Shown in pieces: positions 28,464-56,582 of a stretch of DNA of 64,000 nucleotides (within the stretch, counting starts at the first letter, position 1; every line of letters starts with the position of its first letter). Source of the stretch: a virus (lineage: Duplodnaviria > Caudoviricetes); IMG/VR virus record IMGVR_UViG_3300032007_000001; one strand, given 5' to 3'. The notes below the pieces were generated by a model that worked only from the letters and a program-made list of their open reading frames with translations, was not told the origin of the DNA and ran no database searches. The position numbers and the translations under genes are program-made.

Positions 28464-28480
28464 TTTGGAGGGAAAATATT

Positions 28481-29323: not shown

Positions 29324-29382
29324 TATAAATATTGATATAAAACATAAAAGAAGTGCTATTTTAGCACTTCTTTTTATTTTTA

Positions 29383-31235: not shown

Positions 31236-31247
31236 TATATCACCTAT

Positions 31248-39120: not shown

Positions 39121-39882
39121 ATGAGCGAATATAATATTGTACCAAGAACCAATGGTGATGGTAATATTGGTACACCAGCAAAAAAATGGAATGGAATATA
39201 TGCGAATTCAATAAATAAAGAAGCTTTGCCAAATGCAACATCAGAAAACAAGGGTGCTGTCGTAGTTGGTGACAATATAACAGTAAATAATGGAACAATT
39301 TCAATTACAGAAAGCGATGTAGTCGCTGCGCTTGGGTATTATCCAGCAACAAACAACGATATGCTTCAACCTTCTACAACTTATGCTGTTGGTGACCAAG
39401 TATATCATTCAAAATTTCAAAAAGGATTGTTATTAGAATGTATTCAAGCTGGAACTACATCAGCAGAAGAACCAGTGGAACTTGGTCATGCTCCAACATT
39501 GAATAGTAAAATGGTTGAACCTTCTACTACATATGCAGTTGGCGACCAAGTATATAGCAACCAACTTCCTTATGGAATGATGTTAGAATGTGTTCAAGCT
39601 GGGACAACTGATTCAAACGAATTGGATTTAACAGAATATATATTAACATTATCTGGAACAACAAATCAAACAATAACTTTAACATATACAGAACCTGGTG
39701 CAATGGCCGTAACTGTAACCAGCACATCTTCGGACCAAACGTTCTCTGTTCTTACTGGTACAACTTGGACGGCTAGTGTAACTGGTGCAACTGGTTATAC
39801 AGCTGGTGCGTTGTCTGCATCTTCTGGTACAGTGAGTGCAAATACCACGATTAGTGCAGAAGCAGCAACATTGAATAGTTAA
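39121..39882 (+). CDS. Tail-fibre-like modular protein
   Basis: NIVPR..G.G.IG...K.W; duplicated PSTTYAVGDQVY....LEC.QAGTT module; Thr-rich C-terminus. Confidence 0.7.
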   Translation: MSEYNIVPRTNGDGNIGTPAKKWNGIYANSINKEALPNATSENKGAVVVGDNITVNNGTISITESDVVAALGYYPATNNDMLQPSTTYAVGDQVYHSKFQKGLLLECIQAGTTSAEEPVELGHAPTLNSKMVEPSTTYAVGDQVYSNQLPYGMMLECVQAGTTDSNELDLTEYILTLSGTTNQTITLTYTEPGAMAVTVTSTSSDQTFSVLTGTTWTASVTGATGYTAGALSASSGTVSANTTISAEAATLNS

Positions 39883-39922
39883 AAAATAAGGAGCTGTTAT
39901 GCTCCTTTATTTTGGTGATTTT

Positions 39923-40282
39923 ATGAATGTAAAGGAATTATATAATCCGGAATACTTAAAATTTAAGAGTAGATATGAACAAATAAACAACAATGAAAAA
40001 TCTTTATTATGCAAGGATTGTAGATATTATAATGGAGAAATATCTATTGGAAATTTTAAGGCTTATGGTTGTAAATTAACTAATACTATTATTGTTGGTA
40101 CTGGTTGCGACTTAAAAAATAAAGATTTTTCAAATGAAAAAATATGTTATAATTGCAAACATTTTCTTGGTGGAAATGATTGGGGACTATCTTGTAAAAA
40201 AGATTATTATAAATTAGTTGGGTCGTTTGATGAAGCATGCAAAGATTTTTGTTTTGGTGATGATAAATGTCAATCAACTTAA
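39923..40282 (+). CDS. Cys-rich small protein (two C..C..Y/F...C...C units)
   Basis: CKDCRYY...C...C and CYNCKHF...C...C. Confidence 0.6.
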   Translation: MNVKELYNPEYLKFKSRYEQINNNEKSLLCKDCRYYNGEISIGNFKAYGCKLTNTIIVGTGCDLKNKDFSNEKICYNCKHFLGGNDWGLSCKKDYYKLVGSFDEACKDFCFGDDKCQST

Positions 40283-41237: not shown

Positions 41238-41271
41238 AGTGCTATGTTGTATAAAAAAAGAATAACTTAAG

Positions 41272-41478
41272 GCCACTAAAAATTAGTGGCTCTTGTTTAT
41301 AATCAATACGTAAACGAACGATATTTTATTATCGATATAAATTTAATTTGAAAAATGAAGCTAGAGGGGGAAATACCTTATGGCAGTTGATTTGAGACGC
41401 CTCGACGCCAATGGCCTTAATTATTATTTTAAGGAAGTTGGTTTATTATATGACCAAAAATATGTTTCCAAAGATGAA
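41272..41478 (+). repeat. Left copy of diverged direct repeat (terminator, promoter region, first 33 codons)
   Basis: Matches 52213..52411; encodes identical MAVDLRRLDANGLNYYFKEVGLLYDQKYVSKDE. Confidence 0.85.
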
Positions 41479-42333
41479 GTACGAGTAACCAATGTTACGT
41501 TAGAAGGTAATTCTTTAGTTATATATTTTAATGACGGAACAAGGAAAAAACTTGACGAATATGATGAAGAATTTGAGAACCTAAGAACATACTTAAATGA
41601 TAAATTCAGTGAAGTTGAAAATTCTGTTAATAATATAAATTTAACTGTGACAGGCAAATGTGCTAGTGATGAAATAACATTAAGCCCAAATAATAATGTA
41701 AATATTGATATTAGTTCTGTTGATGCAGATACAATCAATGTAACATCTGTAACTGATAATAATAGATATTTAGCACTCGTTGATGGCGTTGGCAATCAGG
41801 AAGTACATAATATCGAAGATTTTTATGTTAATTGTGATAATAAAAAATTATACGTTACAAATATCGAATGTTCTGGAGATATTAAAGGTAATCGTGTATT
41901 TAATGCAGTCTGGAATGACTATGCTGAATTAATGCCTCGAGGAGAAGAAACTGAACCTGGCGATATAATCATGTTAGACCTTAAAACCAAAGATGAACGT
42001 TATATTAAAGCTACAGATAAATTAGGTACAGTAGTAGCTGGTGTTCATTCGGATGAATTTGGTATGCTAATAGGCGGAGAAAAGCCAGTTGATAGTAAAG
42101 ACCTATTAGAGTATAATATAGACAAATATATTCCAATAGCTCTATCCGGCAGAGTTCACGTTAAATTTATCGGTAAAGCTAAGAAAGGAGCTAAAGTAGT
42201 TCCTTCTTCTGAACCTGGATATGGACGTTTATATAATAAAGGAGTAGATGACCCAGATACTATTATTGGGTATTTGGTTGAAGATGATGACAAAACAGAC
42301 AAGAGAAAACTTAAAATTAGAATCACGAGGTAA
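41380..42333 (+). CDS. Tail fibre/spike with C-terminal intramolecular-chaperone (peptidase G2/S74-like) domain
   Basis: NAVWNDYAE....E..PGD, GV.SD..G..IGG, PIAL.GRV.VK. Confidence 0.7.
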   Translation: MAVDLRRLDANGLNYYFKEVGLLYDQKYVSKDEVRVTNVTLEGNSLVIYFNDGTRKKLDEYDEEFENLRTYLNDKFSEVENSVNNINLTVTGKCASDEITLSPNNNVNIDISSVDADTINVTSVTDNNRYLALVDGVGNQEVHNIEDFYVNCDNKKLYVTNIECSGDIKGNRVFNAVWNDYAELMPRGEETEPGDIIMLDLKTKDERYIKATDKLGTVVAGVHSDEFGMLIGGEKPVDSKDLLEYNIDKYIPIALSGRVHVKFIGKAKKGAKVVPSSEPGYGRLYNKGVDDPDTIIGYLVEDDDKTDKRKLKIRITR

Positions 42334-43309
42334 ATTAGACTTAATTATTAAGCCTACACAAGCTTGCAATTTTGCTTGTGAATTTTGTTCTTCTAATGAT
42401 ATTAGTAATAGTAATAATAAAATATTACCATTAGATTTTCTCTGTGATTATATATTAAAAAATAATATTAATAGAATAATAGTAAACGGAGGAGACCCAT
42501 TGATGGTATCTCCCGTTTATTATTTGAAATTGTTGTCTTTCGTAGATGCTAATAAATTGGATGTCCATATATCATTTACTACTAATCTTTGGGATTTTTA
42601 TATTAATCCAAGCAAATGGGTAAATATATTTAAGAATTCTAAAGTTGGTATATGTACAAGTTTTCAATATGGAAATGAAAGAAAACTGAGAGATGGAACT
42701 ATTTTTTCGGAAAAATTATTTGTAAAAGTATTCAATAAATTCAAAGAATTAATAGGATATAATCCAATGTTTATTGTTGTTATTAATAAAAACAATGAAC
42801 ATTTGGCATTAAAACATGTGGAATTAGCCAAAAAATTAAATACAAAATGCAAAATGAATCCAGCATTGGCATCTGGACGAACAACAGAACCTTATCCTTT
42901 ATATAAAATGTACAATATATATGTGGATATTATTAAGCATGGATTATCTGATTATGAATTTAATTCTAAAGAAATAGTAAAATTATATAATAATCAACCC
43001 GCATGTTGTCCATATAGCAGAAATTGTTATAAAGGGATAAGATGCATTGACCCGGACTTAAATATATATACATGCGGAGCTTTTAACGATAATCATAACA
43101 ATAAAGATTATGCTATTCATAGTGGAAATTTTATTGCAAAAGATTATCCTTTTATAAAAAACGAGTGCTTAGCTTGTGAGTTATTCAAATTTTGCAATTC
43201 ATGCTATAAAAATATAGCCGATATTAAAAATTTTAATTTAATAGATGAGCACTGTATTGGTATGAAAAAGATAGGCAAAGAATTATGCAAAGTATGTACA
43301 TTAAATTAA
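42248..43309 (+). CDS. Radical SAM/SPASM enzyme 1 (start uncertain)
   Basis: LIIKPT..CNFACEFC, NGGDPL, TTNL; C-terminal CP...C ... C..C.....C..C......C. Confidence 0.85.
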   Translation: MTQILLLGIWLKMMTKQTRENLKLESRGKLDLIIKPTQACNFACEFCSSNDISNSNNKILPLDFLCDYILKNNINRIIVNGGDPLMVSPVYYLKLLSFVDANKLDVHISFTTNLWDFYINPSKWVNIFKNSKVGICTSFQYGNERKLRDGTIFSEKLFVKVFNKFKELIGYNPMFIVVINKNNEHLALKHVELAKKLNTKCKMNPALASGRTTEPYPLYKMYNIYVDIIKHGLSDYEFNSKEIVKLYNNQPACCPYSRNCYKGIRCIDPDLNIYTCGAFNDNHNNKDYAIHSGNFIAKDYPFIKNECLACELFKFCNSCYKNIADIKNFNLIDEHCIGMKKIGKELCKVCTLN

Positions 43310-44142
43310 CTGAATCATGCAACTTAAAATGTCCGTTTTGTTATGTTGTTCAGAATAATAATAAAATGACATTAAAAACCGCATTAGAATCAATAGATAA
43401 GTATAATCCTGAAGAAATAATATTTCATGGTGGCGAACCAACATTAGAGAAAAAATTAATATTAAATATCTTAAAAAATAGACCAAATTATAAATATTCA
43501 ATAACAACAAATCTAATGACAAATATTGATAAGGAATTGGAATATATATTAAAAAAATGTTCAGTTGCAACAAGTTATTCATATGATAGATTTATCAATA
43601 AGAATCAATTTGATAAATTTAAGAGTAATTTTAATAAGGTTATTAAAATAAATGATATTACTTTGTTAATAACATTAACACCAAAACAACTGATAAGACC
43701 AACCAAAGAATTATGTAATATTATTAAAGAATTAAATCCTACTAATGTTACATTAGAACGAGTAAGGTTAGATTATATAACTGACATAAATGAATATAAA
43801 AATTTATATAAACTTACTGACGAATATTTGTATGAAATATTTTCTAGAGGTCTAATACCAATAGAAAAGAACAATCTATACAAAATGATAGTTAAATCAA
43901 TTAAAACCAATACACCAGTTTTTAGTAATTGTAATGTAATAACTGTTAACCCAGATGGGTCTGTTATTAATTGTCCAAATGGACCATTAGAAAAGAAAAG
44001 ATTAAAGGAATGTATTACTTGTAATATATATCAATATTGCAAAAATGATTGCCAGAGTTTTTCATCATTGGCATGTAGTTTTCCTATTAAAACTGTAAGC
44101 TTTGTAAAGGAGGCGCTGTATAATGGCAGTAACGAAAGATAA
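43285..44142 (+). CDS. Radical SAM/SPASM enzyme 2
   Basis: CNLKCPFC, HGGEPT, TTNL, NPDG....CP, C..C.....C...C......C. Confidence 0.85.
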   Translation: MQSMYIKLTESCNLKCPFCYVVQNNNKMTLKTALESIDKYNPEEIIFHGGEPTLEKKLILNILKNRPNYKYSITTNLMTNIDKELEYILKKCSVATSYSYDRFINKNQFDKFKSNFNKVIKINDITLLITLTPKQLIRPTKELCNIIKELNPTNVTLERVRLDYITDINEYKNLYKLTDEYLYEIFSRGLIPIEKNNLYKMIVKSIKTNTPVFSNCNVITVNPDGSVINCPNGPLEKKRLKECITCNIYQYCKNDCQSFSSLACSFPIKTVSFVKEALYNGSNER

Positions 44143-44704
44143 TGTTATATCGTTATCAGAACTTTGTAATTACATAAATACCAATGTAGTAGATTATATA
44201 CAATCTCAAATACAATACTATAAAGAAAATCCTCCTCCGAATTTTAGTGGTAATGAAGATTATCTTCATTCTGGAACAACATTAGAAACCTTAACTCCAG
44301 ATATTATTACTAATTCAAATGATAAAATTAGTTTTAACGTATTGTATGAAAAATTGCAGCAATTATTTAAGAATTGGGCATTAGTAAGAATAATTGCTCA
44401 TACATATTATGTTGGTAATAATACAAATGGTGGAACAATAACTTATACTAGTAATGAATATTCCGGATATGCTTATTTAACAACAGACCCAAAAGATAAT
44501 TCTCTTACATTAACCAATTTGTTAAATACTAAAATAACCACAGACCATCTATCAAATATAGTATCAAAAATTAAAAATAGATGGTTTACAGTAGCGTCTG
44601 CTGACCAACAAAATACAGATACAACCAATTGTCATACGAATTGCCACAGCAGTTGTCACAGCAGCTGTCACAGTAGTTGTCATGGGAGTAGTGGTGGCTG
44701 GTGA
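44123..44704 (+). CDS. Candidate radical-SAM substrate protein with C-terminal (CHxx)5 repeat
   Basis: Ends TTNCHTNCHSSCHSSCHSSCHGSSGGW; sits among the rSAM genes. Confidence 0.7.
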   Translation: MAVTKDNVISLSELCNYINTNVVDYIQSQIQYYKENPPPNFSGNEDYLHSGTTLETLTPDIITNSNDKISFNVLYEKLQQLFKNWALVRIIAHTYYVGNNTNGGTITYTSNEYSGYAYLTTDPKDNSLTLTNLLNTKITTDHLSNIVSKIKNRWFTVASADQQNTDTTNCHTNCHSSCHSSCHSSCHGSSGGW

Positions 44705-45441
44705 TTAATATGAATGAGAATATTATTAAGACACAGATACCTTTTGATGATGAACTGCTTGACAAATGCTTAAATGATGACGATGGTTCTTTATATGTCA
44801 TTGAATTTGATAAAAGCCAATATAAAGATGTTCGTTTTTTGAACTATATATATAATTTGGAATTAAAAAATTTTATAGTAAATTTTCAAAACCTAAGTAC
44901 AGAATTGTCAGATATTTTGATTGAATATATAACTATCAACAAAATACTGAGCGTTGACATATTTAACAGAATATGGATAAATGTATTGGAAAAACATTTA
45001 TTTAATAAACATTATGATAATGAACAATATGATGCATTTTTAAGTGAATTTATCAATAAAAATCATAACATCATAGAAGAATTATCAATAATATTATGTT
45101 CTCTTAAGTCTTATTTGTTGCAATTTACTTTTAATAAAAATTTTGATATAACCAAATACTTAAATAATAGTGAAGAATTCAAACAAATAGGTATTAATTT
45201 AGTATCATTAAGAAATTCAATAACGTTTTGGAATTTATTTGAAGAACTTGATAATGCTAAAAACATAAATATCAAAAAATATAAGAATTTTTATAACAAT
45301 TCATTTGAAGGATATAATATAGATAAGTATTTTCTTAAAGAATTCAACCCATTGGGATTAATATTTACAATGTCAAATGATAATTATAAGCAACTTAATG
45401 ATTTTACAAAGGAATTAAAATGTACGTTTACATCAGATTAA
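44701..45441 (+). CDS. Hypothetical accessory protein of the rSAM operon
   Basis: Overlapping start and stop with neighbours. Confidence 0.65.
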   Translation: MINMNENIIKTQIPFDDELLDKCLNDDDGSLYVIEFDKSQYKDVRFLNYIYNLELKNFIVNFQNLSTELSDILIEYITINKILSVDIFNRIWINVLEKHLFNKHYDNEQYDAFLSEFINKNHNIIEELSIILCSLKSYLLQFTFNKNFDITKYLNNSEEFKQIGINLVSLRNSITFWNLFEELDNAKNINIKKYKNFYNNSFEGYNIDKYFLKEFNPLGLIFTMSNDNYKQLNDFTKELKCTFTSD

Positions 45442-46334
45442 CTGAAAAATGTAACTTAAATTGTGAACATTGTTTTAACAATATTAGAACTAATAAAATT
45501 ATAGATTTTGATAAATTAAAAGTTGTTCTTACCAACTTGAATAAAAGATTCAATAATAATATTTTTATAATTCATGGTGGAGAACCACTTTTGGTGAACA
45601 CAAAAGACATAATAAAATTAATCAACGATTTTCCAAATAATAAATGGCAAATTACAACGAATCTGATTTATGATTTAACAGATGATATGATAAGTTTGTT
45701 CAAACTCATAAATATATTAAGAATTTCGTTTGATATAAAAATCAGATTCAATAATTTTAGAAATTTACATACATGGGTTAAAAATATCAAAATATTGAAA
45801 CAAAATAATATTGACATTAACTTAAACTTGTGTTTAACGAAATATTTGATTAATCATAGTATTAGCAGTTTCATTAATTTTATAAATAGATTGGACACAA
45901 AAACATATAGATTAGAAATTCTTAGATATCATGGAAATGTTAATTGTAAAAGTCAATTTGTTATTAATAATAATCAAATAGACGATTGGATTTTTGATTT
46001 ATATAAATATGATAAAACTGATAATAGATGCATTAACATACAAGAAATAAAACATTGTATAAATAGTAAAAATAGTTTTTATAAAACCTGTTGTAATAAT
46101 ACATTAACTATTAATAGTGACTTAAGTATTGGTAATTGTCCAGCATATACGAGCAATAATTCAAAATTATTGTTGGATGAAATTTTACATAATCATAGAA
46201 AAATTCGTAATGAATGCTTAATATGTGATTATTACCAATATTGTCGTGGTTGGTGTAATAAAATGAATTGGACTAATAACATATGTCCTTTTCCAAAGAA
46301 ATTAGCTAATGAAATACTGGAGGGTATGAAATGA
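45420..46334 (+). CDS. Radical SAM/SPASM enzyme 3
   Basis: CNLNCEHC, HGGEPL, TTNL, CC...TIN.D....CP, C..C.....C.G.C.......CP. Confidence 0.85.
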   Translation: MYVYIRLTEKCNLNCEHCFNNIRTNKIIDFDKLKVVLTNLNKRFNNNIFIIHGGEPLLVNTKDIIKLINDFPNNKWQITTNLIYDLTDDMISLFKLINILRISFDIKIRFNNFRNLHTWVKNIKILKQNNIDINLNLCLTKYLINHSISSFINFINRLDTKTYRLEILRYHGNVNCKSQFVINNNQIDDWIFDLYKYDKTDNRCINIQEIKHCINSKNSFYKTCCNNTLTINSDLSIGNCPAYTSNNSKLLLDEILHNHRKIRNECLICDYYQYCRGWCNKMNWTNNICPFPKKLANEILEGMK

Positions 46335-47551
46335 TAATAAATATATTTGAGAAGCCATTCAGTAAAACGGAATTTAAGAAATTTGACGATAACGTTGATT
46401 TTACAAATGGCAAGATAAATAATTATAATGCTATAATCAACGATGATATGATACTTATAAATTCAGAATGGTATAATTCGGATGAAACTACAACAACGGC
46501 ATTGTATAATAAATCATCTGATATTAAAACCTCAAACAATTATATTGAAATTGATAATGTAATTTGTAAAAATATTCCTACTTTTGGTGTAACTCTTGAA
46601 GACAATTTTAATATATTGCAATTCAATTTAACTAGAGAAGAAGTTAATAATAGCAACGTAATGTCATCAATCATTAAACATAGAGGTTGTTTAATGTTTT
46701 GGGACACTAACAAAAAATATAATTATTCTAGTAAAGAAATTGATGAAAATAAATTAAAAGAATTAGTTGCTATATATAAGAAACAAGGATATATTGCACC
46801 ATTAGTTTTGTATGCAGATAAGGATTTTATTAGACCCTATTATCATGATTATATTATCTACTTGTATAAAGTACTTAATTTAGATATTCTACCAGTTCGT
46901 ATCATAACATATAAAGATATAAGATACATTAAAAATATTGATGAATTAATATATAATAAAATCAAATCGATACAAAGCAATAAATACTATGAAGCTGTTG
47001 ATAATGAAGACATGTCGCCTTACATGATATCAAATTACAGCAATAAAAGAGATATTATAAAAAAATATCTCAATGGTCAGTTTAACAACTTGCAATTCGA
47101 TGATTTGCATGAATTTTTGCCTTATGTTTTTAACGACGAAAAAGAAAACTTAAATAAAAATTTAATAACGAATGTAATGAATCATGATTTTTCTAAATAT
47201 TTCTACTTAAAAAATGGAAAACAATTTTATAGTATGTCATTGAGTGAGTCACTATTTAATTATCTTAATGGACATTTAGATACTAAAGAAATTAGTATTA
47301 CAGAAGACCAGATAATTAAAAAATTTCCAAAATTTGAAATAAAAAAAATAATTGACTTTGACCCATCTTTGCTTGCATTAGATTATTTTGATTATAATAT
47401 CAACAACGAAATAATTGGTGAGATTAGTAAACAATTTGGTAGAAATTGTTTATATGAAGAATCGCCAAATGCATTAATAGACTTTCATGTATTAAACGAT
47501 TTATTAAATGGTTCTGAAACCAAAATAAAAATTCTTAAAATAAAGAAATGA
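46331..47551 (+). CDS. Hypothetical protein of the rSAM operon
   Basis: ATGA overlap; weak ParB-like segment (L....K.QG..APLV). Confidence 0.6.
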   Translation: MIINIFEKPFSKTEFKKFDDNVDFTNGKINNYNAIINDDMILINSEWYNSDETTTTALYNKSSDIKTSNNYIEIDNVICKNIPTFGVTLEDNFNILQFNLTREEVNNSNVMSSIIKHRGCLMFWDTNKKYNYSSKEIDENKLKELVAIYKKQGYIAPLVLYADKDFIRPYYHDYIIYLYKVLNLDILPVRIITYKDIRYIKNIDELIYNKIKSIQSNKYYEAVDNEDMSPYMISNYSNKRDIIKKYLNGQFNNLQFDDLHEFLPYVFNDEKENLNKNLITNVMNHDFSKYFYLKNGKQFYSMSLSESLFNYLNGHLDTKEISITEDQIIKKFPKFEIKKIIDFDPSLLALDYFDYNINNEIIGEISKQFGRNCLYEESPNALIDFHVLNDLLNGSETKIKILKIKK

Positions 47552-47556
47552 GTTAA

Positions 47557-48378
47557 ATGTTCATAAACACATTAAGCAAAATTATATTTATTAATAAGAG
47601 TTCCGAACCAAAAATTAAAATATGTAAATTTTTGAGTTATAGTTATTTAGAAGATTATAAAAAACTAAAAAAGTCATATCCAACAATTGAATTTTTATAT
47701 AAAGATTTATTAAAGCAAAGTAGAATTTATAATAAATTCAATAACTATCACATATTCATATTTGATAATGATGATTTTATCAATGCGTTAATTGATTACT
47801 GCGTATTATTACAATTGGATAAAACTGCATTGGATAAAATGATAGAATATTCAAATGTTTGCGAAATGTATGAAGAAAATCATCAATATTTCATTTCTGT
47901 ATATGATGAAGATTTTATATTAGATACCAGTAAAATTGTACTCAATAAATCAAAGATACATATTAAAGATTTATCAATGTTTCCAGCAGAATTTTTTGTT
48001 AATTGTATGGATAATAATATTGCTATACAAAAATACTCTAGAATGAGATTATTTGATTTATACATCACTATAAAAGACTTACAATATTTATTAATAAAAG
48101 AAAATAAAAGTATTCCAAAAGAACTTCAATGTTTTGGAAACAGTGACCAAACAACCTTATTATTGGAAAATAATGATATATTTAATAATGTTATAAAAAC
48201 ATTAAACGAATACAATGTTGATACAAATAAATTTACTTGTCCAATCAATAAGTACTTGGACTTAAATCCAAATTTTGGATACGATAGGTATTTCATGACA
48301 AAATATAATTATATGTTGGCTAAATACTTAAAATCTATTAATTATAGGATAACACAATATGTTGCGAAAAGATTATGA
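47557..48378 (+). CDS. Hypothetical protein of the rSAM operon
   Basis: ORF. Confidence 0.6.
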   Translation: MFINTLSKIIFINKSSEPKIKICKFLSYSYLEDYKKLKKSYPTIEFLYKDLLKQSRIYNKFNNYHIFIFDNDDFINALIDYCVLLQLDKTALDKMIEYSNVCEMYEENHQYFISVYDEDFILDTSKIVLNKSKIHIKDLSMFPAEFFVNCMDNNIAIQKYSRMRLFDLYITIKDLQYLLIKENKSIPKELQCFGNSDQTTLLLENNDIFNNVIKTLNEYNVDTNKFTCPINKYLDLNPNFGYDRYFMTKYNYMLAKYLKSINYRITQYVAKRL

Positions 48379-49189
48379 ACATATAGAAAAAACATTTTTT
48401 TCTATTAAAAATGAACCAATAGGATATAGTTATCCAGATATGTATTCTGCTTATAAAAATTTTTCAAAAAATTTTAATATACCTATAGGCAATTTTATAT
48501 TAACAAATGGTTGCGAAAATGCCATTAGGATATTATTATCTTTATTCTCTAAAGAAATAACTACAGAAAAACCTCTTTTAATAGAAAAACCAGGGTGGGA
48601 ATTAGTATCTGTATTAGCATATGCTATGGATATACCTTATAAATTCTATTATTATGATAATGAATTTAAGACTAATTATGATAAAACTCATATAGTTTAT
48701 ACGACAGATACTTATAATAATGTAATCAAACATGAGTTTCCATCTGGTGAAGCAGATATTTATATAATAGATGAATCTTATACGATGAAACATTATTTTA
48801 ATGAAATACAAATACAAGATAATCACATAATCATTGGGTCATTTAGTAAGTTGGTTGACCCAGGTATAAGATTAGGATATATATTGTTTTCAGATAAATA
48901 TAGAGATAAAATGAATTTGTTAAGAGAGCAATATGTTAATAAAAATGCAGTAGATATATTAAAAAATTTATTTATAAAAAAGCCAGATTTTACAAAACCC
49001 AAAATTGAAAATAGCGAATTAATTGTGGCTTCACATTCTACTTATCTTACATTAAAAATTAATGATTTCCCGCTCAGTCATAAAAAATTTTCAATAAACA
49101 ATATTAATTACTGTAGAATAGGTAGACTTTCTGATAAATCTCAGGAGGTACTATTATTAAATGACATACTCAGAAACATTAAAGAATAG
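48359..49189 (+). CDS. PLP-dependent class I/II aminotransferase-like (HisC/CobD-type), compact
   Basis: YPD, LTNG.E.AI, IIDESY, SFSK...PGIRLGY. Confidence 0.75.
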   Translation: MLRKDYEHIEKTFFSIKNEPIGYSYPDMYSAYKNFSKNFNIPIGNFILTNGCENAIRILLSLFSKEITTEKPLLIEKPGWELVSVLAYAMDIPYKFYYYDNEFKTNYDKTHIVYTTDTYNNVIKHEFPSGEADIYIIDESYTMKHYFNEIQIQDNHIIIGSFSKLVDPGIRLGYILFSDKYRDKMNLLREQYVNKNAVDILKNLFIKKPDFTKPKIENSELIVASHSTYLTLKINDFPLSHKKFSINNINYCRIGRLSDKSQEVLLLNDILRNIKE

Positions 49190-49958
49190 ATATAAAATTA
49201 ATAATAATGATAATGAAATAGATTGCTTAAAAACTATATGTATTAATGTAACAGACTATTGCAACTTAAAATGTTCTTATTGCCCGCACGGGCATTCTTT
49301 TAATAGTAAAGAACATATTATGAATCTAAATACATTGGACAAATTAATAGAAAGACTTAATGAACTTAACTATAAAAATAGATTAACTATATCTGGATTT
49401 GGAGAACCAATGCTTCATCCATATATAGATATAATTATAAATAAACTGAAAAAATTTAATGTAGAAATATTAACAAATGGGTTAGTGGTTCCTAAGAATA
49501 AAACATCAATATTGAAAAACGCTAACAAAATAATTGTTAGCGTTCATAACATAAATGATTTAGATAAAATAAAAGAATTTTGGCCAAATGCAATAATAAG
49601 AAATCATGATATTGCTGATAAAAATTGCGAATTAATAGTAACGAATAGAGCTGGGTACTTAAACGATAAATATATAGATAATATATGTTCTTGCCCTTTT
49701 TACAAAATGTTTATAGATTATGACGGTTCGTATTTATTGTGTGCTGATGATTTCAAAAGAAAATCATTTCATAATCAAGTAAACATATTTAATCTATCAA
49801 TTAAAGATTATTTCATCAATTGCTTAAAAACAACCAAAATTAATATGCTTAATAGTAGAAAACTAATCGAGCCTTGTAATAAATGCAATATTAATGGAAC
49901 TGTATACGGATTAGATATAATTGAAAAATTCAAAAAAGAGGTATTAAAAATTGGATAA
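49161..49958 (+). CDS. Radical SAM enzyme 4 (twitch/SPASM)
   Basis: CNLKCSYC, SGFGEP.LHP, TNG, NRAG, C..PF....ID.DG....C, PC..C. Confidence 0.85.
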   Translation: MTYSETLKNRYKINNNDNEIDCLKTICINVTDYCNLKCSYCPHGHSFNSKEHIMNLNTLDKLIERLNELNYKNRLTISGFGEPMLHPYIDIIINKLKKFNVEILTNGLVVPKNKTSILKNANKIIVSVHNINDLDKIKEFWPNAIIRNHDIADKNCELIVTNRAGYLNDKYIDNICSCPFYKMFIDYDGSYLLCADDFKRKSFHNQVNIFNLSIKDYFINCLKTTKINMLNSRKLIEPCNKCNINGTVYGLDIIEKFKKEVLKIG

Positions 49959-50364
49959 TAGAAAAATAGGCAAATTTAAGGATATGTTTTATTTAATAGA
50001 TGAAAAAATTAGAAAGAATGTATTTAAGTTAAATCAAGCTGGATTTGTTACTTTTACAAGCAGTCAGGGAAATAATATAGAATTACCAAAAATTGGGATA
50101 GTATGTAAATCGTTATATGAAGCAAATGAAATAATAAAATTAATTGATACAAATAAAACAAATATATGGTATGAATTGTCAAATAGATGGTATAAAGAAA
50201 ATCCAATGTGTTGTAACGAAATAAATTATGATAATCAAACTAATTGTGATAATATATGTAAACCGTTCGATTTAGATTGGGACAGATGCTATTTTTTATT
50301 ATTTAAGGCTAAAACATTGAAAGAATTAGATGATTTGACCGATTTTCTAATTAAGAAGGAATAA
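49951..50364 (+). CDS. Hypothetical protein with TYW3-like N-terminal motif
   Basis: IDE.I...V..LN..G..T..S.QG. Confidence 0.45.
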   Translation: MDNRKIGKFKDMFYLIDEKIRKNVFKLNQAGFVTFTSSQGNNIELPKIGIVCKSLYEANEIIKLIDTNKTNIWYELSNRWYKENPMCCNEINYDNQTNCDNICKPFDLDWDRCYFLLFKAKTLKELDDLTDFLIKKE

Positions 50365-50366
50365 TA

Positions 50367-51269
50367 ATGAAATCAGATTGTTTATATGGTCATAAAATAA
50401 CTGTTGGATATAATTGCAAAGGTCAAGATTTTTTTGATATATTATCTTTTTATAAGAAATATATAGAAGAATTCTATTTTTCTTTTAGGCATACTATGCC
50501 CAAAACACCATTAGATTTAAGTATTATTTATAATCAATTAAAAGATTCAGAACAATATGATATTCCTTCTAATTTGTTATTAAATACAGAACAAGAAGAA
50601 TTGGAATGGGAATATCTTATTAATAAAGCTTATGAATGTACAAAATTGCAAGCTGTGTCTGTATTAAATATAAAAACTGCTAAAATTATAAAAGAAAAAT
50701 TTCCAAATATAAAAATTCACATATCTACTCATGGTGCGCAATATATTGATATTAAAGAATTAGATAAAAACTTAATTTATTGTGTTAATGTGAATGAACC
50801 GGCAATTTATACAGAACAACAACAAAATGTTATTAAAAAATGTAAAAAAATTGGAATTAAACTTAAGCATATAACTAATAGAGGCTGTATTTTTAATAAA
50901 CACGATTTTATGTCTCGTTTAACTGGGAAAAATATAATGTGTTGCAATGGATATCAATGCAAAAAAATATTGAAAGATTATCCATGGGTAGATTTAATTA
51001 GAACGAATTTATATAAAGAACAATTAAAATATCTTAATTTTGATTTTATTAAACTTTCTACTAGGGAAAGAACAAATGAAGAAATTAGTATGATGCTTAA
51101 ATATTGGACAAATCCAAAAATATCTACTGCTCATTTGTCGAATATTTATATATCAGAAAATAAATATCCAATTTTCTTAGAATGGTGTAAACAAAGATTT
51201 ATTTGTAATGGAAATTGCATAACTTGTAATATATGTAAAGAATACTATAAAAAATTAAAAGAAAATTAA
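50367..51269 (+). CDS. Peptidase U32-like Fe-S protein
   Basis: I...FP.I.IHIST, N.GC, KLSTR, C-terminal C...C..C..C. Confidence 0.65.
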   Translation: MKSDCLYGHKITVGYNCKGQDFFDILSFYKKYIEEFYFSFRHTMPKTPLDLSIIYNQLKDSEQYDIPSNLLLNTEQEELEWEYLINKAYECTKLQAVSVLNIKTAKIIKEKFPNIKIHISTHGAQYIDIKELDKNLIYCVNVNEPAIYTEQQQNVIKKCKKIGIKLKHITNRGCIFNKHDFMSRLTGKNIMCCNGYQCKKILKDYPWVDLIRTNLYKEQLKYLNFDFIKLSTRERTNEEISMMLKYWTNPKISTAHLSNIYISENKYPIFLEWCKQRFICNGNCITCNICKEYYKKLKEN

Positions 51270-51301
51270 ATCATAAATATTGTTATACGTTAAGAGGGAT
51301 T

Positions 51302-52207
51302 ATGATGTATAATTATATAAATGAAATTGATAATGATTCTATAGTAGATAGAATAATAAAAATATCAAATAATACTAATGTTCATTTGTATGATACACCA
51401 GTCACTGTTAAAATAGAGTTGACTGGTGTTTGTACTTTGGGATGCGTTTTTTGTTTTAATCAAATTATGAAGAAAAACAAAATAAGACAAAAAATGATGT
51501 CAGATAAAGAATTTGATATATGCCTTAAATATATTGGTAAAATACCAACAATAAAAGAAGTTGGATTATTTTATATGGGCGAATCGACTTTACATCCAAA
51601 ATTAGTAGAATACTATAAGAAAGTAAAAGAATTGGGATATTTTACATTTTTAACTACTAACGGAACGTATATAAAAGAATTAATAAAAGCTATCCCATAT
51701 ATAGACAGCTTAAAAGTATCTTTCAATTATATAAATGATAAAGATTTTTCAATAAAAACCGGTTTACCCAATAAGGTTTATTTTGATATAGTTGATAATA
51801 TATCAATATTAAAAAATGAATGTCATAAACAAGGCAAAAAACTATATGGTTCAACTGTGCTTGATTATAATGAACAAGACTATTTGAGTAATGAAGTTAT
51901 AAAAACTTTTGATGAACACTATTTCATTCCGTTGCAAAATCAAGGTGGACTTATAAATAAAGGAAAAGGCGGAGTTGTTGGAGAAAGTAAACATCAAGTA
52001 AAAACCATTCCATGTTGGTCTTTATTTAAGGGATTATATATAGATGTAGACTTAAATGTCAGAACATGTTGTTATGGACATACAAAAGAACATATATTAT
52101 TTAATTTAAGAGATTGTAATCGCGATTTGGAAAAATTATATAAAATCAGAAATCAACAATTATCGAAAAAAATACCAAATATTTGCAACAAATGCTTAAA
52201 AATATAA
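51302..52207 (+). CDS. Radical SAM enzyme 5 (twitch/SPASM)
   Basis: IELT..CTLGCVFC, GLFYMGES, TTNG, PCWSLF......D....CC, C..C. Confidence 0.85.
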   Translation: MMYNYINEIDNDSIVDRIIKISNNTNVHLYDTPVTVKIELTGVCTLGCVFCFNQIMKKNKIRQKMMSDKEFDICLKYIGKIPTIKEVGLFYMGESTLHPKLVEYYKKVKELGYFTFLTTNGTYIKELIKAIPYIDSLKVSFNYINDKDFSIKTGLPNKVYFDIVDNISILKNECHKQGKKLYGSTVLDYNEQDYLSNEVIKTFDEHYFIPLQNQGGLINKGKGGVVGESKHQVKTIPCWSLFKGLYIDVDLNVRTCCYGHTKEHILFNLRDCNRDLEKLYKIRNQQLSKKIPNICNKCLKI

Positions 52208-52212
52208 GCCAT

Positions 52213-52411
52213 GTCACCAAAATTAATAGTATTAGTTTATAATCAAAATGTAAATAAATGATATTTTATTATTGATATAAATTTGATTTAAAAAGCTGTA
52301 GGAGGAAACCTCATGGCAGTCGATTTAAGGCGTCTAGATGCCAATGGTCTTAATTATTATTTTAAAGAAGTTGGCTTATTATATGACCAAAAATATGTCT
52401 CTAAAGATGAA
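52213..52411 (+). repeat. Right copy of diverged direct repeat
   Basis: Matches 41272..41478, with the upstream hairpin degenerate. Confidence 0.85.
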
Positions 52412-52939
52412 AAAAGAGTAATCAATATTTATTTAAGTGGTAATACATTAATTATTCAATTTAGTGATGGTTCTACACAAGAAGTAGATGTAAAATATAG
52501 TGAAGCATCTAATGATGAATACGGACTTGTAAAATTATATTCCAGCGAAGGTAACAATACAGACGGCGCAATGTCGCAAAAAGCTATTACAGATTTGATA
52601 ACACAAAAAACATCTTCTGCTAGATATGGTGTTTGTTCAACAGCTGCTGAAACGGCAGCAAAAACAGTTGAATCGGCAGGACAATTTATTTTAGAAGCCG
52701 GTTCTAGAGTAACCATTAAATTTACAAATGTCAATACTGCAAATGCGCCAACATTAAATGTAAATAATACTGGTGCAAAATATATTTATGCTAATGGGCA
52801 TCAACTTACAGCAAATAGCAATTTGATAGTTGCTGGTGGCATATATGATTTTGTATATGATGGAACAAATTGGGAAATGCCAAATATTACAAATGTTCCA
52901 AAAGAATCTGGAATTATAGATTTCTATACAACTCCATAA
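52313..52939 (+). CDS. Tail-fibre protein (paralogous N-terminus to 41380)
   Basis: YGLVKLYS..G.NTDG.MSQKA; YG.CSTAA.TAAK.V....F.L..G..V..KFT..NTA..PTLNVN.TGAK.I ... YDGTNW. Confidence 0.75.
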   Translation: MAVDLRRLDANGLNYYFKEVGLLYDQKYVSKDEKRVINIYLSGNTLIIQFSDGSTQEVDVKYSEASNDEYGLVKLYSSEGNNTDGAMSQKAITDLITQKTSSARYGVCSTAAETAAKTVESAGQFILEAGSRVTIKFTNVNTANAPTLNVNNTGAKYIYANGHQLTANSNLIVAGGIYDFVYDGTNWEMPNITNVPKESGIIDFYTTP

Positions 52940-53646: not shown

Positions 53647-53804
53647 TTCATTATTAAAACCTCCCAAATTAAAAGAGAACTTAATTGTTCTCTTTTAATT
53701 TAGTGTGTTATCAATTTTATTTATATATTGAAACATAATAACGAAACAACAAATCAATATTATGTTTTTAGATGTTGATGTTCTATTTTATGGAAGGTGA
53801 AAAA

Positions 53805-55595: not shown

Positions 55596-56582
55596 TCATT
55601 TGAGTCCCTTTTTTGATTTTTCGTACATATATAAATCTGGTCTAAATGGTCGATTGAATATTGGATATTCTTCATATAATTGATTACATATCTTACATTC
55701 ATCACAATGAAATTTATCACAATATAAAAGAGAATCTGGAATTACAGATGTATTTACGTCATAAATATTTTTATTTGCTGGGTCTATAAATAATTCGCTT
55801 AATTTGCAATCTTTTCTAGACGCATATATGTCAATAGGATGAAATATGCTTGAAATGTATTTTCTTGAACGAGTATTTAATTTATAAATATCTACATATT
55901 CATCTAAAATATTTAGCCATCTTGGCAAAACATAACATCTTTTCAAAATTTCGTTATTGTTAAGACAATTTCTTTTTGAGTAATTACATCCGCACGTCGA
56001 ATAATTTGTACATGTTATTGAACATGTTTCGTTAATTAACAATCTTATTTTGAATCCATTTTCTTTAAGCACTTTAAGAAATGGGATATTTCTGGCTGCG
56101 TCTCTTGGTGGATTTATATAATTGAATCCTTCATCATACCATTGTTTATAATGATTTAAGTTATAGTACGGTAAATTACAACTTGTAACTATTTCCAATT
56201 CCGGATAACGTTTTTTTATTGTTTTTGCAATTGTAAAATTTGTGGTTGCCATTCCATACAAATTATATTTTTCTATAGCGTTTGAAATTTTTTCAATAAT
56301 TTCTTGTAGTTCATTGTTGGTATATTTTATATAATAATCAATATCGTTACATAAAATTGTTATTCTTAAATCAGAATTTTTCGATTCTTCTAAAAAATTA
56401 ATGCAGTTTGTCTTATAATTTTCATGTTTTTGGTCATTACAGATTGTCATGAATGTATCTATTCCTGGACATTCTGTAAAAATATCGTGAATTAAGTTTT
56501 TTCTTTTTTCAGCTTCGTATAAAAAATCATTTATTTTATTTGTACCATTAAATCCTATAGCAAATTGTTTCATTGACTTCAT
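55596..56582 (-). CDS. Peptidase U32-like Fe-S protein 2
   Basis: IK..YP.LEI.TS, IN.PRD..RN...L, LL.NE.C...C, D.YKL..R, C....C..C..C. Confidence 0.7.
   Translation of the reverse strand: MKSMKQFAIGFNGTNKINDFLYEAEKRKNLIHDIFTECPGIDTFMTICNDQKHENYKTNCINFLEESKNSDLRITILCNDIDYYIKYTNNELQEIIEKISNAIEKYNLYGMATTNFTIAKTIKKRYPELEIVTSCNLPYYNLNHYKQWYDEGFNYINPPRDAARNIPFLKVLKENGFKIRLLINETCSITCTNYSTCGCNYSKRNCLNNNEILKRCYVLPRWLNILDEYVDIYKLNTRSRKYISSIFHPIDIYASRKDCKLSELFIDPANKNIYDVNTSVIPDSLLYCDKFHCDECKICNQLYEEYPIFNRPFRPDLYMYEKSKKGLK

Follow-up and report, generated by a model that had tools for sequence, protein, structure and literature searches.

Why would a phage carry an operon for five radical SAM (rSAM) proteins, and on what would these enzymes act? 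The operon lies at 42248-52207 of the window, i.e., the whole 64,000-nucleotide stretch of DNA analysed here, and additionally encodes a PLP-type enzyme and a 193-aa protein that ends in (CHxx)5. The source genome is a single 504,279-bp virus record (29.7% GC, 18 tRNAs and a tmRNA), in agreement with the original prediction of a phage origin. Sequence comparison places the operon in a conserved system that has not yet been described. The reading favored here is that this rSAM system probably modifies the tail of a virion protein covalently. Chemical modification of a virion protein by rSAM enzymes has not been described so far for viruses.

Operon Organization and Genomic Context

As had been predicted, the operon is co-directional: all ORFs lie on the + strand at the expected coordinates, and the majority overlap or abut. 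Domain searches likewise found neither a protease nor an ABC exporter domain in the operon, as anticipated. The features are as follows.

41271..41291, +, terminator-like hairpin just 5′ of the unit (consensus scan only)
41279..41537, +, direct repeat copy 1, covering the upstream region and the first ~54 fibA codons (repeat families D3 and D1)
41380..42333, +, fibA, fibre-like protein of 317 aa, C-terminal domain homologous to Atu_ph07 gp176
42248..43309, +, rSAM1, SPASM-type, core component (Pfam Radical_SAM, phrog_1802, motifs)
43285..44142, +, rSAM2, radical SAM/SPASM, core component (Pfam Radical_SAM), directly 5′ of the tail-protein gene
44123..44704, +, CH-tail protein, 193 aa, proposed substrate (folded domain 1-169 and disordered tail)
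44630..44701, +, tail, five C-H-x-x units followed by GSSGGW (family alignment, 78 unique tails)
44701..45441, +, hyp246, near-core companion of the tail protein (phrog_20767; homologues 3′ of the tail gene)
45420..46334, +, rSAM3, radical SAM/SPASM, core component (Pfam Radical_SAM, full SPASM Cys pattern)
46331..47551, +, hyp406, branch-specific (homologue in related locus L006; family in L014 and L015)
47557..48378, +, hyp273, branch-specific (homologues in L005, L006, L014, and L015)
48359..49189, +, short fold-type-I PLP enzyme, HisC/CobD-like, 276 aa (Pfam Aminotran_1_2)
49161..49958, +, rSAM4, partial SPASM or twitch C-terminus (Pfam Radical_SAM, SPASM at threshold)
49951..50364, +, p137 (orthologue in L005)
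50367..51269, +, p300, Cys-rich, distantly U32-like (alignment to U32-hitting proteins)
51302..52207, +, rSAM5, short C-terminal Cys set (Pfam Radical_SAM)
52219..52470, +, direct repeat copy 2, covering the upstream region and the fibB start
52313..52939, +, fibB, second fibre-like protein, N-terminus as in fibA (matches phrog_33513)

After the hairpin upstream of fibA, the next long-stem + strand hairpin in the consensus scan lies at 53666-53701. The two direct repeat copies share 81-82% identity, and the initial 33 residues of fibA and fibB are identical; phrog_33513 is a PHROG without functional annotation. The C-terminal domain of fibA has homologues in Atu_ph07 gp176, a virion protein by MS in the published proteome, and in Phosso gene 292. 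A fibA homologue is located immediately 5′ of the operon in L012, and others occur in L014 and L015. The gene had been called a tail spike; the data support a fibre-like protein only.

The Radical SAM Enzymes

All five predicted rSAM proteins pass the Pfam Radical_SAM cutoff. The GG(D/E)P cores and SPASM-like C-termini foreseen for rSAM1-3 were confirmed: these proteins carry CX3CX2C, GG(D/E)P, and a CX2CX5CX2-3C block inside a Cys-rich C-terminus, with a seven-Cys SPASM-like pattern in rSAM2 and rSAM3, which are paralogues. rSAM2 lacks an N-terminal extension, its CX3CX2C beginning at residue 12. In rSAM4 and rSAM5, the Cys set is shorter and ends in CNKC, and rSAM4 barely meets the Pfam SPASM cutoff (21.7 vs. 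21.5 bits). At about 40% identity over the full length, rSAM1 matches genes of 15 jumbo-phage records. An rSAM2 orthologue stands 5′ of the tail gene in related loci, and rSAM3 orthologues occur in L001, L002, L003, L005, L006, L007, L011, and L012. rSAM4 has three paralogues elsewhere in the genome; both rSAM4 and rSAM5 have an orthologue in L005 (E 1e-98 for rSAM5).

No rSAM protein reaches the cutoff of any curated family; thus, their chemistry cannot be read from homology. Their bacterial homologues give near-full-length matches of 60-108 bits to SPASM maturase families (DynA, anaerobic sulfatase maturase, cyclophane-forming maturases, CbpB, PapB, and HxsB), and two of them pass the SPASM-domain model. 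At E <= 1e-5, hits of these homologues include no QueE, MoaA, or tRNA-modifier family. On the question of family placement, the better-scoring bacterial homologues resemble protein- or peptide-modifying SPASM families rather than QueE/MoaA, in line with the original prediction. No RiPP recognition domain was found in the rSAM proteins, and hyp246 is not RRE-like.

The CH-Tail Protein

The predicted (CHxx)5 protein proved to be as described, with five units followed by GSSGGW. Its gene has a consensus AAGGAGG ribosome-binding site, is the sole ORF with a CHxx repeat in the 504-kb genome, and uses differing synonymous codons between the units. In an alignment of the family (32 representatives), only Met1, C170, C174, C178, and H179 are invariant, and conservation is highest in the tail. 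Statistics from 78 distinct tails give a consensus of three CHxx units and then six residues, GS(G/R)G(R/W/F/Y)R. Three units are present in 60 of the 78, exactly six residues follow the last CH in 67, and 166 of 180 units have Ser, Asn, Ala, or Asp two residues after His. In most members, basic residues end the tail.

The AF2 model of the protein (pLDDT 87) has no structural match in the PDB and matches phage proteins only, including Atu_ph07 gp170. In a 461-aa relative, a Gly_rich_2 domain is fused to the CH-tail folded domain and tail.

Conservation Across Phages and Beyond

Cultured jumbo phages with the system comprise Atu_ph07, Phosso, the RSL2/RSF1/FLC6 group, and pPa_SNUABM_DT01. Between two and six homologous SPASM-type rSAM genes lie within 7 kb of the tail gene in all 26 IMG/VR viral loci. 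An rSAM1-like gene is found in 22 of the 26, and a hyp246 homologue 3′ of the tail gene also in 22 of the 26 as well as in the majority of other loci. The gene order, rSAM and then tail protein, is the same in Atu_ph07, RSL2, Phosso, pPa_SNUABM_DT01, and the metagenomic contigs that extend upstream of the tail gene; in most of these loci, the tail gene is followed by a hyp246 homologue and further rSAMs. The synteny of the tail gene with SPASM-type rSAMs holds in every related locus examined, including very distant phages and bacteria. Homologous operons thus keep the CHxx protein, a co-occurrence on which the original prediction depended. In Pseudomonas, a short form of the system is found outside phages, on an island that carries type IV pilus and conjugation genes; therefore, the role of the system is not intrinsically virion-specific.

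Evidence From the Atu_ph07 Virion

The published virion proteome of Atu_ph07 contains gp170, detected with 8 unique peptides and 35% coverage (PMC6102473, Table S5); its listed mass, 31.89 kDa, equals that computed for the CH-tail orthologue of this phage. The virion list lacks gp164-169, 171, and 172 (PMC6102473), among which gp165, 168, and 171 are rSAM genes and gp169 is the orthologue of hyp246. The 131 listed proteins also include likely contaminants (e.g., ribonucleotide reductase, a RecA-like protein), which have about 2-3% coverage (PMC6102473). With the CH-tail counterpart built into virus particles, the enzymes probably modify a virion protein chemically. The claim of a virion appendage protein stands as far as a virion component is concerned; its place in an appendage is putative.

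The gel distribution of gp170 is also of interest. It is present in bands 1-9 with its maximum in band 1, the top band, compared with bands 7-8 for the ten other proteins of 29-32 kDa chosen for comparison (gp55-gp65) and band 2 for proteins of 117-137 kDa (PMC6102473). No reducing agent is named for the gel loading buffer (PMC6102473), and ordinary disulfides of the three tail cysteines could therefore explain the high-mass gp170.

A Proposed Route of Modification

We infer that the tail is probably the substrate, with covalent cross-linking as the putative chemistry. The substrate would combine a folded domain (~165 aa) with a flexible tail, in which three to six Cys-His-x-x units precede an ending fixed at six residues. 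A dedicated SPASM-type set, here rSAM1, rSAM2, and rSAM3, would modify the tail, candidate links being Cys thioethers and/or bonds that join His to the beta-carbon of the second residue after it. The modified protein would be kept intact and assembled into the virion. The rSAM/tail synteny, the conservation of the tail, and the orthologue in virions speak in favor of the original core idea, a putative maturation by rSAM enzymes.

The 246-aa protein hyp246 probably holds or presents the substrate. Its AF2 model (pLDDT 84) matched no known fold in structure comparison. Prediction of a complex with the CH-tail protein gave a median of 0.57 and a best control of 0.01, which is weak support: among solved complexes, 58 of 80 attained the mark, as did 2 of 110 mismatched pairs, and at <=0.60 lie only 7 of those 80 together with both passing mismatches. 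Contact agreement between runs was at least 83%, with a partner pLDDT of at least 78.

Comparison With Known Systems

In Methanococcus voltae, the SPASM rSAM CrpC acts on CrpA, a whole Cys-rich protein whose N-terminal protein domains help engagement (PMC13692751). The phage system is similar in that a SPASM-type rSAM has a whole protein encoded alongside as its proposed substrate, not a short peptide. However, Crp belongs to archaeal cells and relies on a single enzyme, the substrate of which lacks a Cys-His periodic tail, whereas the phage system has 3-7 rSAMs, the hyp246 companion, and a virion destination; no membership in Crp was found by sequence.

HXS offers a second comparison. HxsA, of ~200 aa with His-x-Ser repeats, is matured by HxsB and HxsC with the small protein HxsD, acquires a covalent change of +8 Da mapped to the His/Ser motif, and as the defence effector acts on incoming phage DNA in the periplasm (PMC13128918). 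Common to both are a ~200-aa protein with short His repeats, multiple rSAMs, and a partner protein. Unlike the phage-carried system, with its period of four, invariant Cys, and C-terminal tail, HXS is a bacterial defence whose periplasmic effector carries a peptidoglycan-binding domain and Cys-free repeats of three residues, and the phage rSAMs miss the HxsB and HxsC models by >230 bits.

The best partial matches of the rSAMs and of their bacterial homologues are ranthipeptide/sactipeptide and triceptide maturases (PapB, the SCIFF maturase, XyeB/YhhB/FxsB/GrrM, and DynA). These SPASM rSAMs act on short repeated motifs, in which they couple a Cys sulfur, an aromatic ring, or a His ring to a carbon atom of a residue close by. 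The phage rSAMs score far under the family cutoffs, and their system differs in having no RiPP recognition domain, protease, or exporter and in a folded putative substrate that is kept whole. QhpD/QhpC of quinohemoprotein amine dehydrogenase and the anaerobic sulfatase maturase are SPASM rSAMs that modify Cys of proteins that stay functional. They differ in their motifs and in using a single enzyme each; compared by NCBIfam scores only, the values are 20-107 bits against cutoffs of 349-453.

Alternative Explanations

The near-invariance of the tail (60 of 78 with three units, 67 of 78 with the six-residue ending, Cys/His invariant) is unusual for a mere cross-linked peptide, and a metal site or cofactor fits it equally well. 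The tail could be a metal or iron-sulfur site built or inserted by the rSAMs, or the precursor of a protein-derived cofactor, its three Cys and three His binding a center or becoming a redox-active group that stays on the protein. rSAM enzymes serve other metal clusters (NifB and HydG/HydE), up to seven rSAMs per locus exceed the usual need for simple cross-linking, and Fe or Zn is often held on His clusters in phage fibres and spike tips. Still, the rSAM homologues are like peptide- or protein-modifying SPASM enzymes, not NifB, HydG, or HydE, and no metal chaperone or cluster-assembly gene was recognized in the operon, so that this reading appears unlikely; it overlaps with covalent modification because a modified tail could also bind metal. 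Somewhat less plausible again is that the CH-tail protein serves as a RiPP precursor whose leader is unusually large. Cleavage would then free the modified tail as a peptide (e.g., a metallophore, toxin, or signal) and leave the N-terminal domain in virions as a by-product. rSAM/SPASM enzymes and a C-terminal core peptide form the classical RiPP layout, and the terminal basic residues could serve as a processing signal. However, protease and exporter are absent from the source operon and the related operons examined, the folded N-terminal domain is itself conserved and packaged (as the gp170 coverage indicates), and the fused form bears a fibre-type Gly_rich_2 domain. Moreover, the core sits at the extreme C-terminus with its conserved ending, which leaves no follower peptide to remove.

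Two further readings are very improbable. The tail protein might be a virion-borne, HxsA-like factor acting at DNA entry or against host defence, a view of the biological role that is compatible with the mechanism of covalent modification. The His-x-(Ser/Asn) in each unit, the basic tail end of most members, the maturation of HxsA by a pair of rSAM enzymes together with a small partner, and the presence of the orthologue in virions are all consistent with it. Yet the rSAMs score 20-32 bits against HxsB/HxsC model cutoffs of 268-370 bits, the period is four residues with invariant Cys instead of three, there is neither a peptidoglycan-binding domain nor an HxsD-like gene, and by structure comparison the CH-tail fold is unrelated to anything known. 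Alternatively, the enzymes could form a small-molecule, nucleotide, or DNA-modification pathway, with the CHxx protein as an unrelated neighbor; a guess in one phage paper was DNA repair or host metabolism, the operon includes a PLP enzyme, and MoaA, QueE, and a tungsten-cofactor maturase are among the weak best matches of rSAM4 and rSAM5. Those MoaA/QueE-type matches span only the N-terminal cluster region, far under cutoffs, and the tail gene/rSAM synteny across all viral loci, very distant phages, and bacteria argues against an unrelated neighbor, as does the position of rSAM4, rSAM5, and the PLP enzyme outside the conserved core.

Putative Branch-Specific Tailoring Genes

The second half of the operon is kept only in close relatives. 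Family searches found no match for hyp273 and, together with structure comparison, no family or fold lead for hyp406. The predicted PLP enzyme is confirmed by Aminotran_1_2 (26.8 bits vs. a cutoff of 19.7) and by retained SFSK lysine and DESY motifs; it falls far under the NCBIfam hisC cutoff and has an orthologue in L005. The label "TYW3-like" for p137 found no support in Pfam, NCBIfam, or PHROGs, and the protein shows weak structural likeness (Atlas) to aminotransferase small domains only. For p300, which has a C-terminal CX3CX2CX2C motif and 46-48% identity to two L006 proteins, the U32 assignment survives in part: it can be aligned at 18-23% identity to proteins matching U32, and three of five proteins aligned with it match Pfam Peptidase_U32 (best E 5e-6), but p300 itself does not.

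U32-family proteins are oxygen-independent hydroxylases, and JmjC-type proteins include ribosomal oxygenases. In Atu_ph07, the gene 5′ of the rSAM/tail pair passes Pfam JmjC_2 and Cupin_2; its family is that of ribosomal-protein residue hydroxylases. The RSL2 operon has two 2OG-FeII_Oxy_5 genes. The cupin is found only alongside RGRR-type tails, and p300 only in the branch of the source phage. The genes of this second half, from hyp273 to rSAM5 (including the PLP enzyme, rSAM4, p137, and p300), may represent branch-specific, oxygen-free tailoring, with the JmjC/cupin oxygenase and 2OG-Fe(II) oxygenases taking the corresponding places in phages of aerobic hosts. Activity is putative for both the JmjC gene and the distantly U32-like p300; their distribution suggests that residues are hydroxylated with oxygen in the former case and without it in the latter.

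Operon layout and genomic setting

The source record is a single virus contig of 504,279 bp with 29.7% GC, 18 tRNA genes and a tmRNA gene; on account of this size, base composition and tRNA/tmRNA set, the window is regarded as jumbo phage DNA. No Rfam family or tRNA gene was found inside the window itself. From 41380 to 52207, plus-strand ORFs follow one another without interruption, mostly overlapping or abutting, which bears out the co-directional operon of the original prediction.

Genes of the operon (coordinates, strand, product)
41380-42333, +, fibre-like protein fibA
42248-43309, +, radical SAM enzyme rSAM1
43285-44142, +, radical SAM enzyme rSAM2
44123-44704, +, tail protein with a C-terminal (CHxx)5 tail (CH-tail protein)
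44701-45441, +, hyp246, companion encoded next after the tail protein
45420-46334, +, radical SAM enzyme rSAM3
46331-47551, +, hypothetical protein hyp406
47557-48378, +, hypothetical protein hyp273
48359-49189, +, PLP-type protein (Pfam PF00155, 26.8 bits against a cutoff of 19.7; SFSK and DESY motifs kept)
49161-49958, +, radical SAM enzyme rSAM4
49951-50364, +, hypothetical protein p137
50367-51269, +, Cys-rich protein p300
51302-52207, +, radical SAM enzyme rSAM5

The PLP-type protein is short (276 aa) but satisfies the fold-type I definition, namely the PF00155 cutoff and the S-x-S-K Schiff-base lysine motif; thus, its earlier label as a PLP enzyme holds, and it reached no specific NCBIfam family. 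Domain searches with Pfam, NCBIfam and PHROGs found neither a protease nor an exporter domain in the operon, in agreement with what had been noticed from the sequence.

The product of fibB (52313-52939), a second fibre-like gene beyond the operon, shares its first 33 residues with fibA. This common N-terminus is part of a direct repeat of about 260 bp (81-82% identity) that includes the upstream region. A hairpin scan placed terminator-like hairpins before fibA and after 53646, and found no long-stem terminator-like hairpin on the plus strand within the operon; a promoter scan of the window was uninformative in such AT-rich DNA (116 sites versus 124 expected). The C-terminal domain of fibA is homologous to gp176 of phage Atu_ph07 and to a Phosso protein, each encoded a few genes upstream of its own operon, and in a metagenomic relative a fibA homologue lies directly 5' of the operon.

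Several neighbouring features were recorded in passing. Just upstream of the fibre genes, 39899-40282 encodes 127 aa, among them 10 Cys, and its product matched no family. The 253-aa product of 39121-39882 resembles fibre or decoration proteins and has a PSTTYAVGDQVY segment duplicated internally; its only PHROG match is weak (head-decoration family, E 0.001). Directly 3' of the fibre genes, the product of 53772-55013 combines an N-acetylmuramoyl-L-alanine amidase domain with a VgrG3-like C-terminal domain and is an endolysin or virion-associated lysin. Further away, 28001-32000 has a GC fraction of 0.40-0.46, against 23-36% GC in the remaining genome, and carries minus-strand ORFs of 512 and 358 aa. 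This stretch is not rRNA, since Rfam gave no match, and may be acquired or highly expressed.

The CH-tail protein family

Translation of 44123-44704 confirmed the predicted (CHxx)5 protein: 193 residues, ending in five Cys-His-x-x units and GSSGGW. The units differ in their synonymous codons, and no other such ORF occurs in the genome. The family was defined by an N-terminal domain homologous to the family alignment (A1) together with three or more CHxx units in a row at the C-terminus, the protein ending about six residues past the last CH; with its five units and GSSGGW end, the window's protein is a member. A word-based protein search with it returned nothing, and homologues emerged only with exhaustive HMMER searching, which gave 32 representatives, each some 185-195 residues long. 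Aligning them leaves only the initiator Met, C170, C174, C178 and H179 invariant. Of the 78 different C-termini collected, 60 comprise exactly three units, and 67 stop exactly six residues past the last CH; in 166 of 180 units, Ser, Asn, Ala or Asp stands two positions after the His.

An AlphaFold2 model built from the family alignment is confident (pLDDT 87, pTM 0.81) and consists of a compact alpha/beta domain (residues 1-169) followed by a disordered tail. Among solved structures, Foldseek returned nothing for this fold at E <= 0.001, and the top Z of a wide search was 4.2; the structural matches are all uncharacterised phage proteins, including the Atu_ph07 orthologue gp170. In a 461-aa relative, a Gly_rich_2 domain precedes the same domain and tail. 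Variant architectures (loci L033/L035, L016 and L038; family proteins P0022, P0031 and P0043) include two tandem tail-protein genes of 134 and 137 aa, one ORF with an internal CH motif and about 115 further residues after it, a 435-aa form with six units, tails lengthened by more Cys-rich repeats, and one Gly_rich_2 fusion.

Radical SAM enzymes

All five radical SAM assignments of the original prediction withstood scrutiny: the proteins starting at 42248, 43285, 45420, 49161 and 51302 match Pfam PF04055 at 37.9-46.7 bits, above the 29.5-bit gathering cutoff, and carry CX3CX2C near the N-terminus. The GG(D/E)P cores and SPASM-like C-termini proposed for rSAM1-3 were likewise recovered by motif scanning, alongside CX3CX2C. 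A SPASM domain is recognized by a C-terminal seven-Cys pattern, including CX2CX5CX3C, that binds two auxiliary clusters (PF13186/TIGR04085); rSAM1-3 display this pattern. The Pfam SPASM model was reached by rSAM4 only, at 21.7 versus 21.5 bits, and the Cys set of rSAM4 and rSAM5 is shorter than that of rSAM1-3. Because rSAM2 and rSAM3 begin at the cluster motif, they lack an N-terminal domain.

The best partial matches of rSAM1-3 are to peptide or protein maturases, and those of rSAM4-5 are generic N-terminal ones (MoaA, QueE, tungsten-cofactor maturase). None of the five reached a curated NCBIfam cutoff, be it for the named maturases (PapB, DynA, DarE, XyeB/YhhB/FxsB, CbpB, anSME, QhpD and HxsB/HxsC; best scores 16-46 bits against cutoffs of 225-650) or for the QueE, MoaA, TYW1, NrdG and viperin families (21-50 bits against 131-325), where matches are confined to the N-terminal cluster region.

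Companion and other operon proteins

The companion hyp246 belongs to phrog_20767 and yields a confident model (pLDDT 84). No known fold was recovered for it (best Z 4.9, over a 58-residue stretch). Nor did the model show a match resembling a PqqD-like RiPP recognition element (RRE), though all Z scores in that comparison are below 5. Several weak matches to rSAM enzyme cores, at Z 3.2-4.0, do not suffice to class it as a degenerate radical SAM protein. A tblastn search against deposited phages found no match; homologues were seen by profile and phmmer comparison. In complex prediction, hyp246 and the tail protein gave a median score of 0.57 against 0.01 for the best control, with at least 83% contact agreement between runs and a partner pLDDT of at least 78. 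Of 80 solved complexes, 58 pass the mark applied, as do 2 of 110 mismatched pairs, and passing scores of 0.60 or below came from only seven of the 80 solved complexes plus both mismatches. These models lend weak support to binding of the tail protein by hyp246.

The two remaining enzyme labels of the original prediction fared less well. For p300, the U32-like label is indirect: three of five proteins aligned with it match Pfam Peptidase_U32 (PF01136; best E 5e-6), while p300 itself does not at E <= 1. Used as profiles against PDB sequences, the p300 and hyp246 alignments gave chance-level matches only. A second U32-like protein, encoded on the minus strand at 55596-56582, aligns with p300-type proteins and has a C-terminal Cys motif in common with them. 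The TYW3-like label of p137 found no support: Pfam, NCBIfam and PHROGs gave no match, and its neighbours in the Atlas comprise unnamed phage proteins and small domains of aminotransferases (TM ~0.5). ParB-like Atlas matches of hyp406 were low-scoring and were rejected.

Conservation and synteny among phages

A near-identity DNA search with the operon gave no match in the phage collection. At the protein level, full-length homologues of rSAM1 with about 40% identity are present in 15 jumbo-phage records (Atu_ph07, Phosso, the RSL2/RSF1/FLC group, SURPRISE13, RsoM3USA and pPa_SNUABM_DT01). Cultured carriers infect Agrobacterium (Atu_ph07), Ralstonia or Burkholderia (RSL2, RSF1, FLC6) and Pseudomonas (pPa_SNUABM_DT01). 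At each phage locus inspected, an rSAM2/3-like gene is followed by one whose product ends in three CHxx units plus R(S/G)RR, with more rSAM genes downstream; a hyp246 homologue comes next after the tail gene in Atu_ph07 and Phosso. Metagenomic contigs with tail proteins have the same gene order, up to seven rSAMs in 12 kb, and clear phage contexts. A scan of IMG/VR added 26 loci, in each of which two to six homologous rSAM genes lie no more than 7 kb from the tail gene; a hyp246 homologue was found in 22, and so was an rSAM1-like gene. Homologous operons retain the CHxx protein with the rSAMs, both at these loci and in the inspected jumbo phages. A search for related loci with rSAM1 as the sole query confirmed none. 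The rSAM cluster of phages RP12 and RP31 was considered as the same system and set aside: it looks like a different cluster, in which no CH-tail orthologue was found, and their virion table was therefore not used.

The loci fall into two branches. In the first, which includes the window, tails end in GGRR, GGWR and similar, and the operons carry extra rSAMs, hyp273, hyp406, the PLP enzyme and p300. In the second, found in phages of aerobic Proteobacteria, tails end in RGRR and a cupin gene lies upstream; the RSL2 and pPa_SNUABM_DT01 operons also hold 2OG oxygenase genes. Pfam cutoffs are passed by the Atu_ph07 cupin (JmjC_2 and Cupin_2) and by two RSL2 genes (2OG-FeII_Oxy_5). The branches may represent oxygen-dependent and oxygen-independent versions of the tailoring steps. 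With oxygenases in phages of aerobic hosts and rSAM and U32-like enzymes here, they would offer a natural experiment on one modification with and without oxygen.

Detection of the orthologue in virions

Virion proteins of Atu_ph07 were identified by gel-slice mass spectrometry (PMC6102473), and the rows of Table S5 up to gp197 are considered here. They list gp170 at 31.89 kDa with 8 unique peptides and 35.16% coverage, in bands 1-9 and richest in band 1 (PMC6102473 Table S5). The computed mass of the Atu_ph07 CH-tail orthologue is also 31.89 kDa, and this agreement makes its identity with gp170 secure. Band 1 is the gel top. A 127-kDa protein is exclusive to it, proteins of 117-137 kDa peak in band 2, and band 13 contains proteins of about 9-19 kDa. 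The ten proteins between 29 and 32 kDa that were compared (gp55-gp65) peak in bands 7-8 (PMC6102473). The fibA-type protein gp176 is among the virion proteins (PMC6102473). In these rows there is no entry for gp164-169, gp171 or gp172, which include the rSAM genes gp165, gp168 and gp171 and the hyp246 orthologue gp169. Since the loading buffer is described without a reducing agent (PMC6102473), disulfides through the three tail cysteines could account for the high-mass species.

Occurrence beyond phages

Cellular genome assemblies were scanned with a degenerate DNA pattern for the tail. Of 33 contigs with the pattern, 24 encode an in-frame family member; the other nine have no in-frame motif ORF of at least 60 aa, and three of them still hold system genes. 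About a dozen contigs (L053, L054, L058-L060 and L063-L068, among others) are MAGs of predatory Bdellovibrionota, some with fibA-like neighbours; the fibA family is present in L054 as well as in the Rickettsiales MAG L048.

Isolates of Pseudomonas oleovorans, P. defluvii, Pseudomonas sp. HS-2 and Thalassospira have a shorter version (124-141 aa) in their genomes, with the tail end CHGACHGACHGSRGWR and four or five rSAMs nearby. Contig 22 of P. oleovorans DSM 1045 (L051, L074, L075) encodes a 130-aa CH-tail protein and five rSAM enzymes. The latter give near-full-length matches of 60-108 bits to DynA, the anaerobic sulfatase maturase, cyclophane-forming maturases, CbpB, PapB and HxsB, and two pass the SPASM-domain model (TIGR04085); at no more than 108 bits, the bacterial homologues reach none of the named-maturase cutoffs (300-450). 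No QueE, MoaA or tRNA-modifier family appears among their matches at E <= 1e-5, so the clustering with such families that would have told against the original prediction was not seen. One flank encodes a secretin, a T2SSE ATPase, a T2SSF protein, a prepilin and a TrwB/TraG-like protein, and the other a TnpB-like gene; downstream are five more rSAM-motif ORFs and a 1115-aa PEP-utilizers-domain protein. The type IV pilus/secretion, TrwB/TraG-like and TnpB-like neighbours point to a conjugative-island type of context rather than a prophage. This suggests that the system also serves a non-phage mobile element and, possibly, another extracellular appendage.

Interpretation and relation to known systems

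The most economical reading is a dedicated maturation system for the tail protein, in which the Cys-His tail of this small protein would undergo covalent modification by SPASM rSAM enzymes and the modified protein would then enter the virus particle. Candidate chemistries are Cys thioethers and/or bonds joining His to the beta-carbon of the second residue after it, as judged purely from the enzyme types that the homologues resemble and from the tail composition. The proposal of a virion component rather than a free peptide is supported by gp170 in the listed Atu_ph07 virion proteins and by an operon without protease or exporter. The main rival explanation, that the tail forms a metal site or protein-derived cofactor, draws on the strict constancy of the tail. 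In a less probable reading, related to this rival, the rSAM set turns the invariant Cys-His tail into a defined chemical group borne by the protein: either a metal-holding cage built of thioether and His-carbon cross-links, or a reactive group that staples the protein covalently to other virion proteins. This would explain why the 32-kDa Atu_ph07 orthologue is found at the top of the SDS gel. It would also give the first virus particle with an enzymatically installed radical-SAM modification, and mobile elements would use the same device for other extracellular appendages, given that the Pseudomonas copy adjoins type IV pilus genes.

With respect to known systems, a RiPP pathway in the strict sense has a short precursor, a leader cut by a protease, and a core that is released or exported. 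The window's operon departs from this scheme: its precursor, at about 190 aa, is a folded protein whose orthologue was detected in Atu_ph07 virions, according to the Table S5 rows considered, and the related operons examined, like that of the window, contained no protease or exporter. The HXS system combines HxsB, HxsC and HxsD with HxsA, which bears His-x-Ser tandem repeats and a peptidoglycan-binding domain; the present tail protein differs in its period of four with Cys, no peptidoglycan-binding domain was found, and the HxsB and HxsC models score 21-32 bits against cutoffs of 268-370. There are precedents for rSAM enzymes acting on whole proteins, namely CrpC on CrpA (PMC13692751) and HxsB/C on HxsA (PMC13128918), and the operon's proteins are members of neither the CrpC/CrpA nor the HxsB/C/HxsA families. 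No account of this system was found in the searchable literature. Jumbo-phage genome papers have listed rSAM genes for a decade without a role; those consulted name them or guess at DNA repair or host metabolism. The present analysis ties these genes to one highly conserved candidate substrate with an orthologue in the virion. If this link is confirmed, enzyme-installed radical chemistry would join the known ways of building virus particles, the short list of rSAM enzymes known to act on whole proteins would grow, and a SPASM family whose substrate is a very simple repeat would be newly defined.

Further radical SAM genes and Cys-rich tails

Genome-wide, 15 ORFs have an N-terminal CX3CX2C, and p300 and one other ORF carry the motif only C-terminally. 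Periodic cysteines also mark the C-termini of at least three more proteins, of which two end in CSCSCSC (genome 400966-401457 and 481488-481835) and one, starting at window position 63413, has a C-x4 repeat. The window sites listed with these observations are 61157-62182 and 63413-64000. Therefore, rSAM-linked Cys tails are a recurrent feature of this phage. Three paralogues of rSAM4, with 29-31% identity, are dispersed at genome positions 9445-10305, 69683-70549 and 239575-240444.
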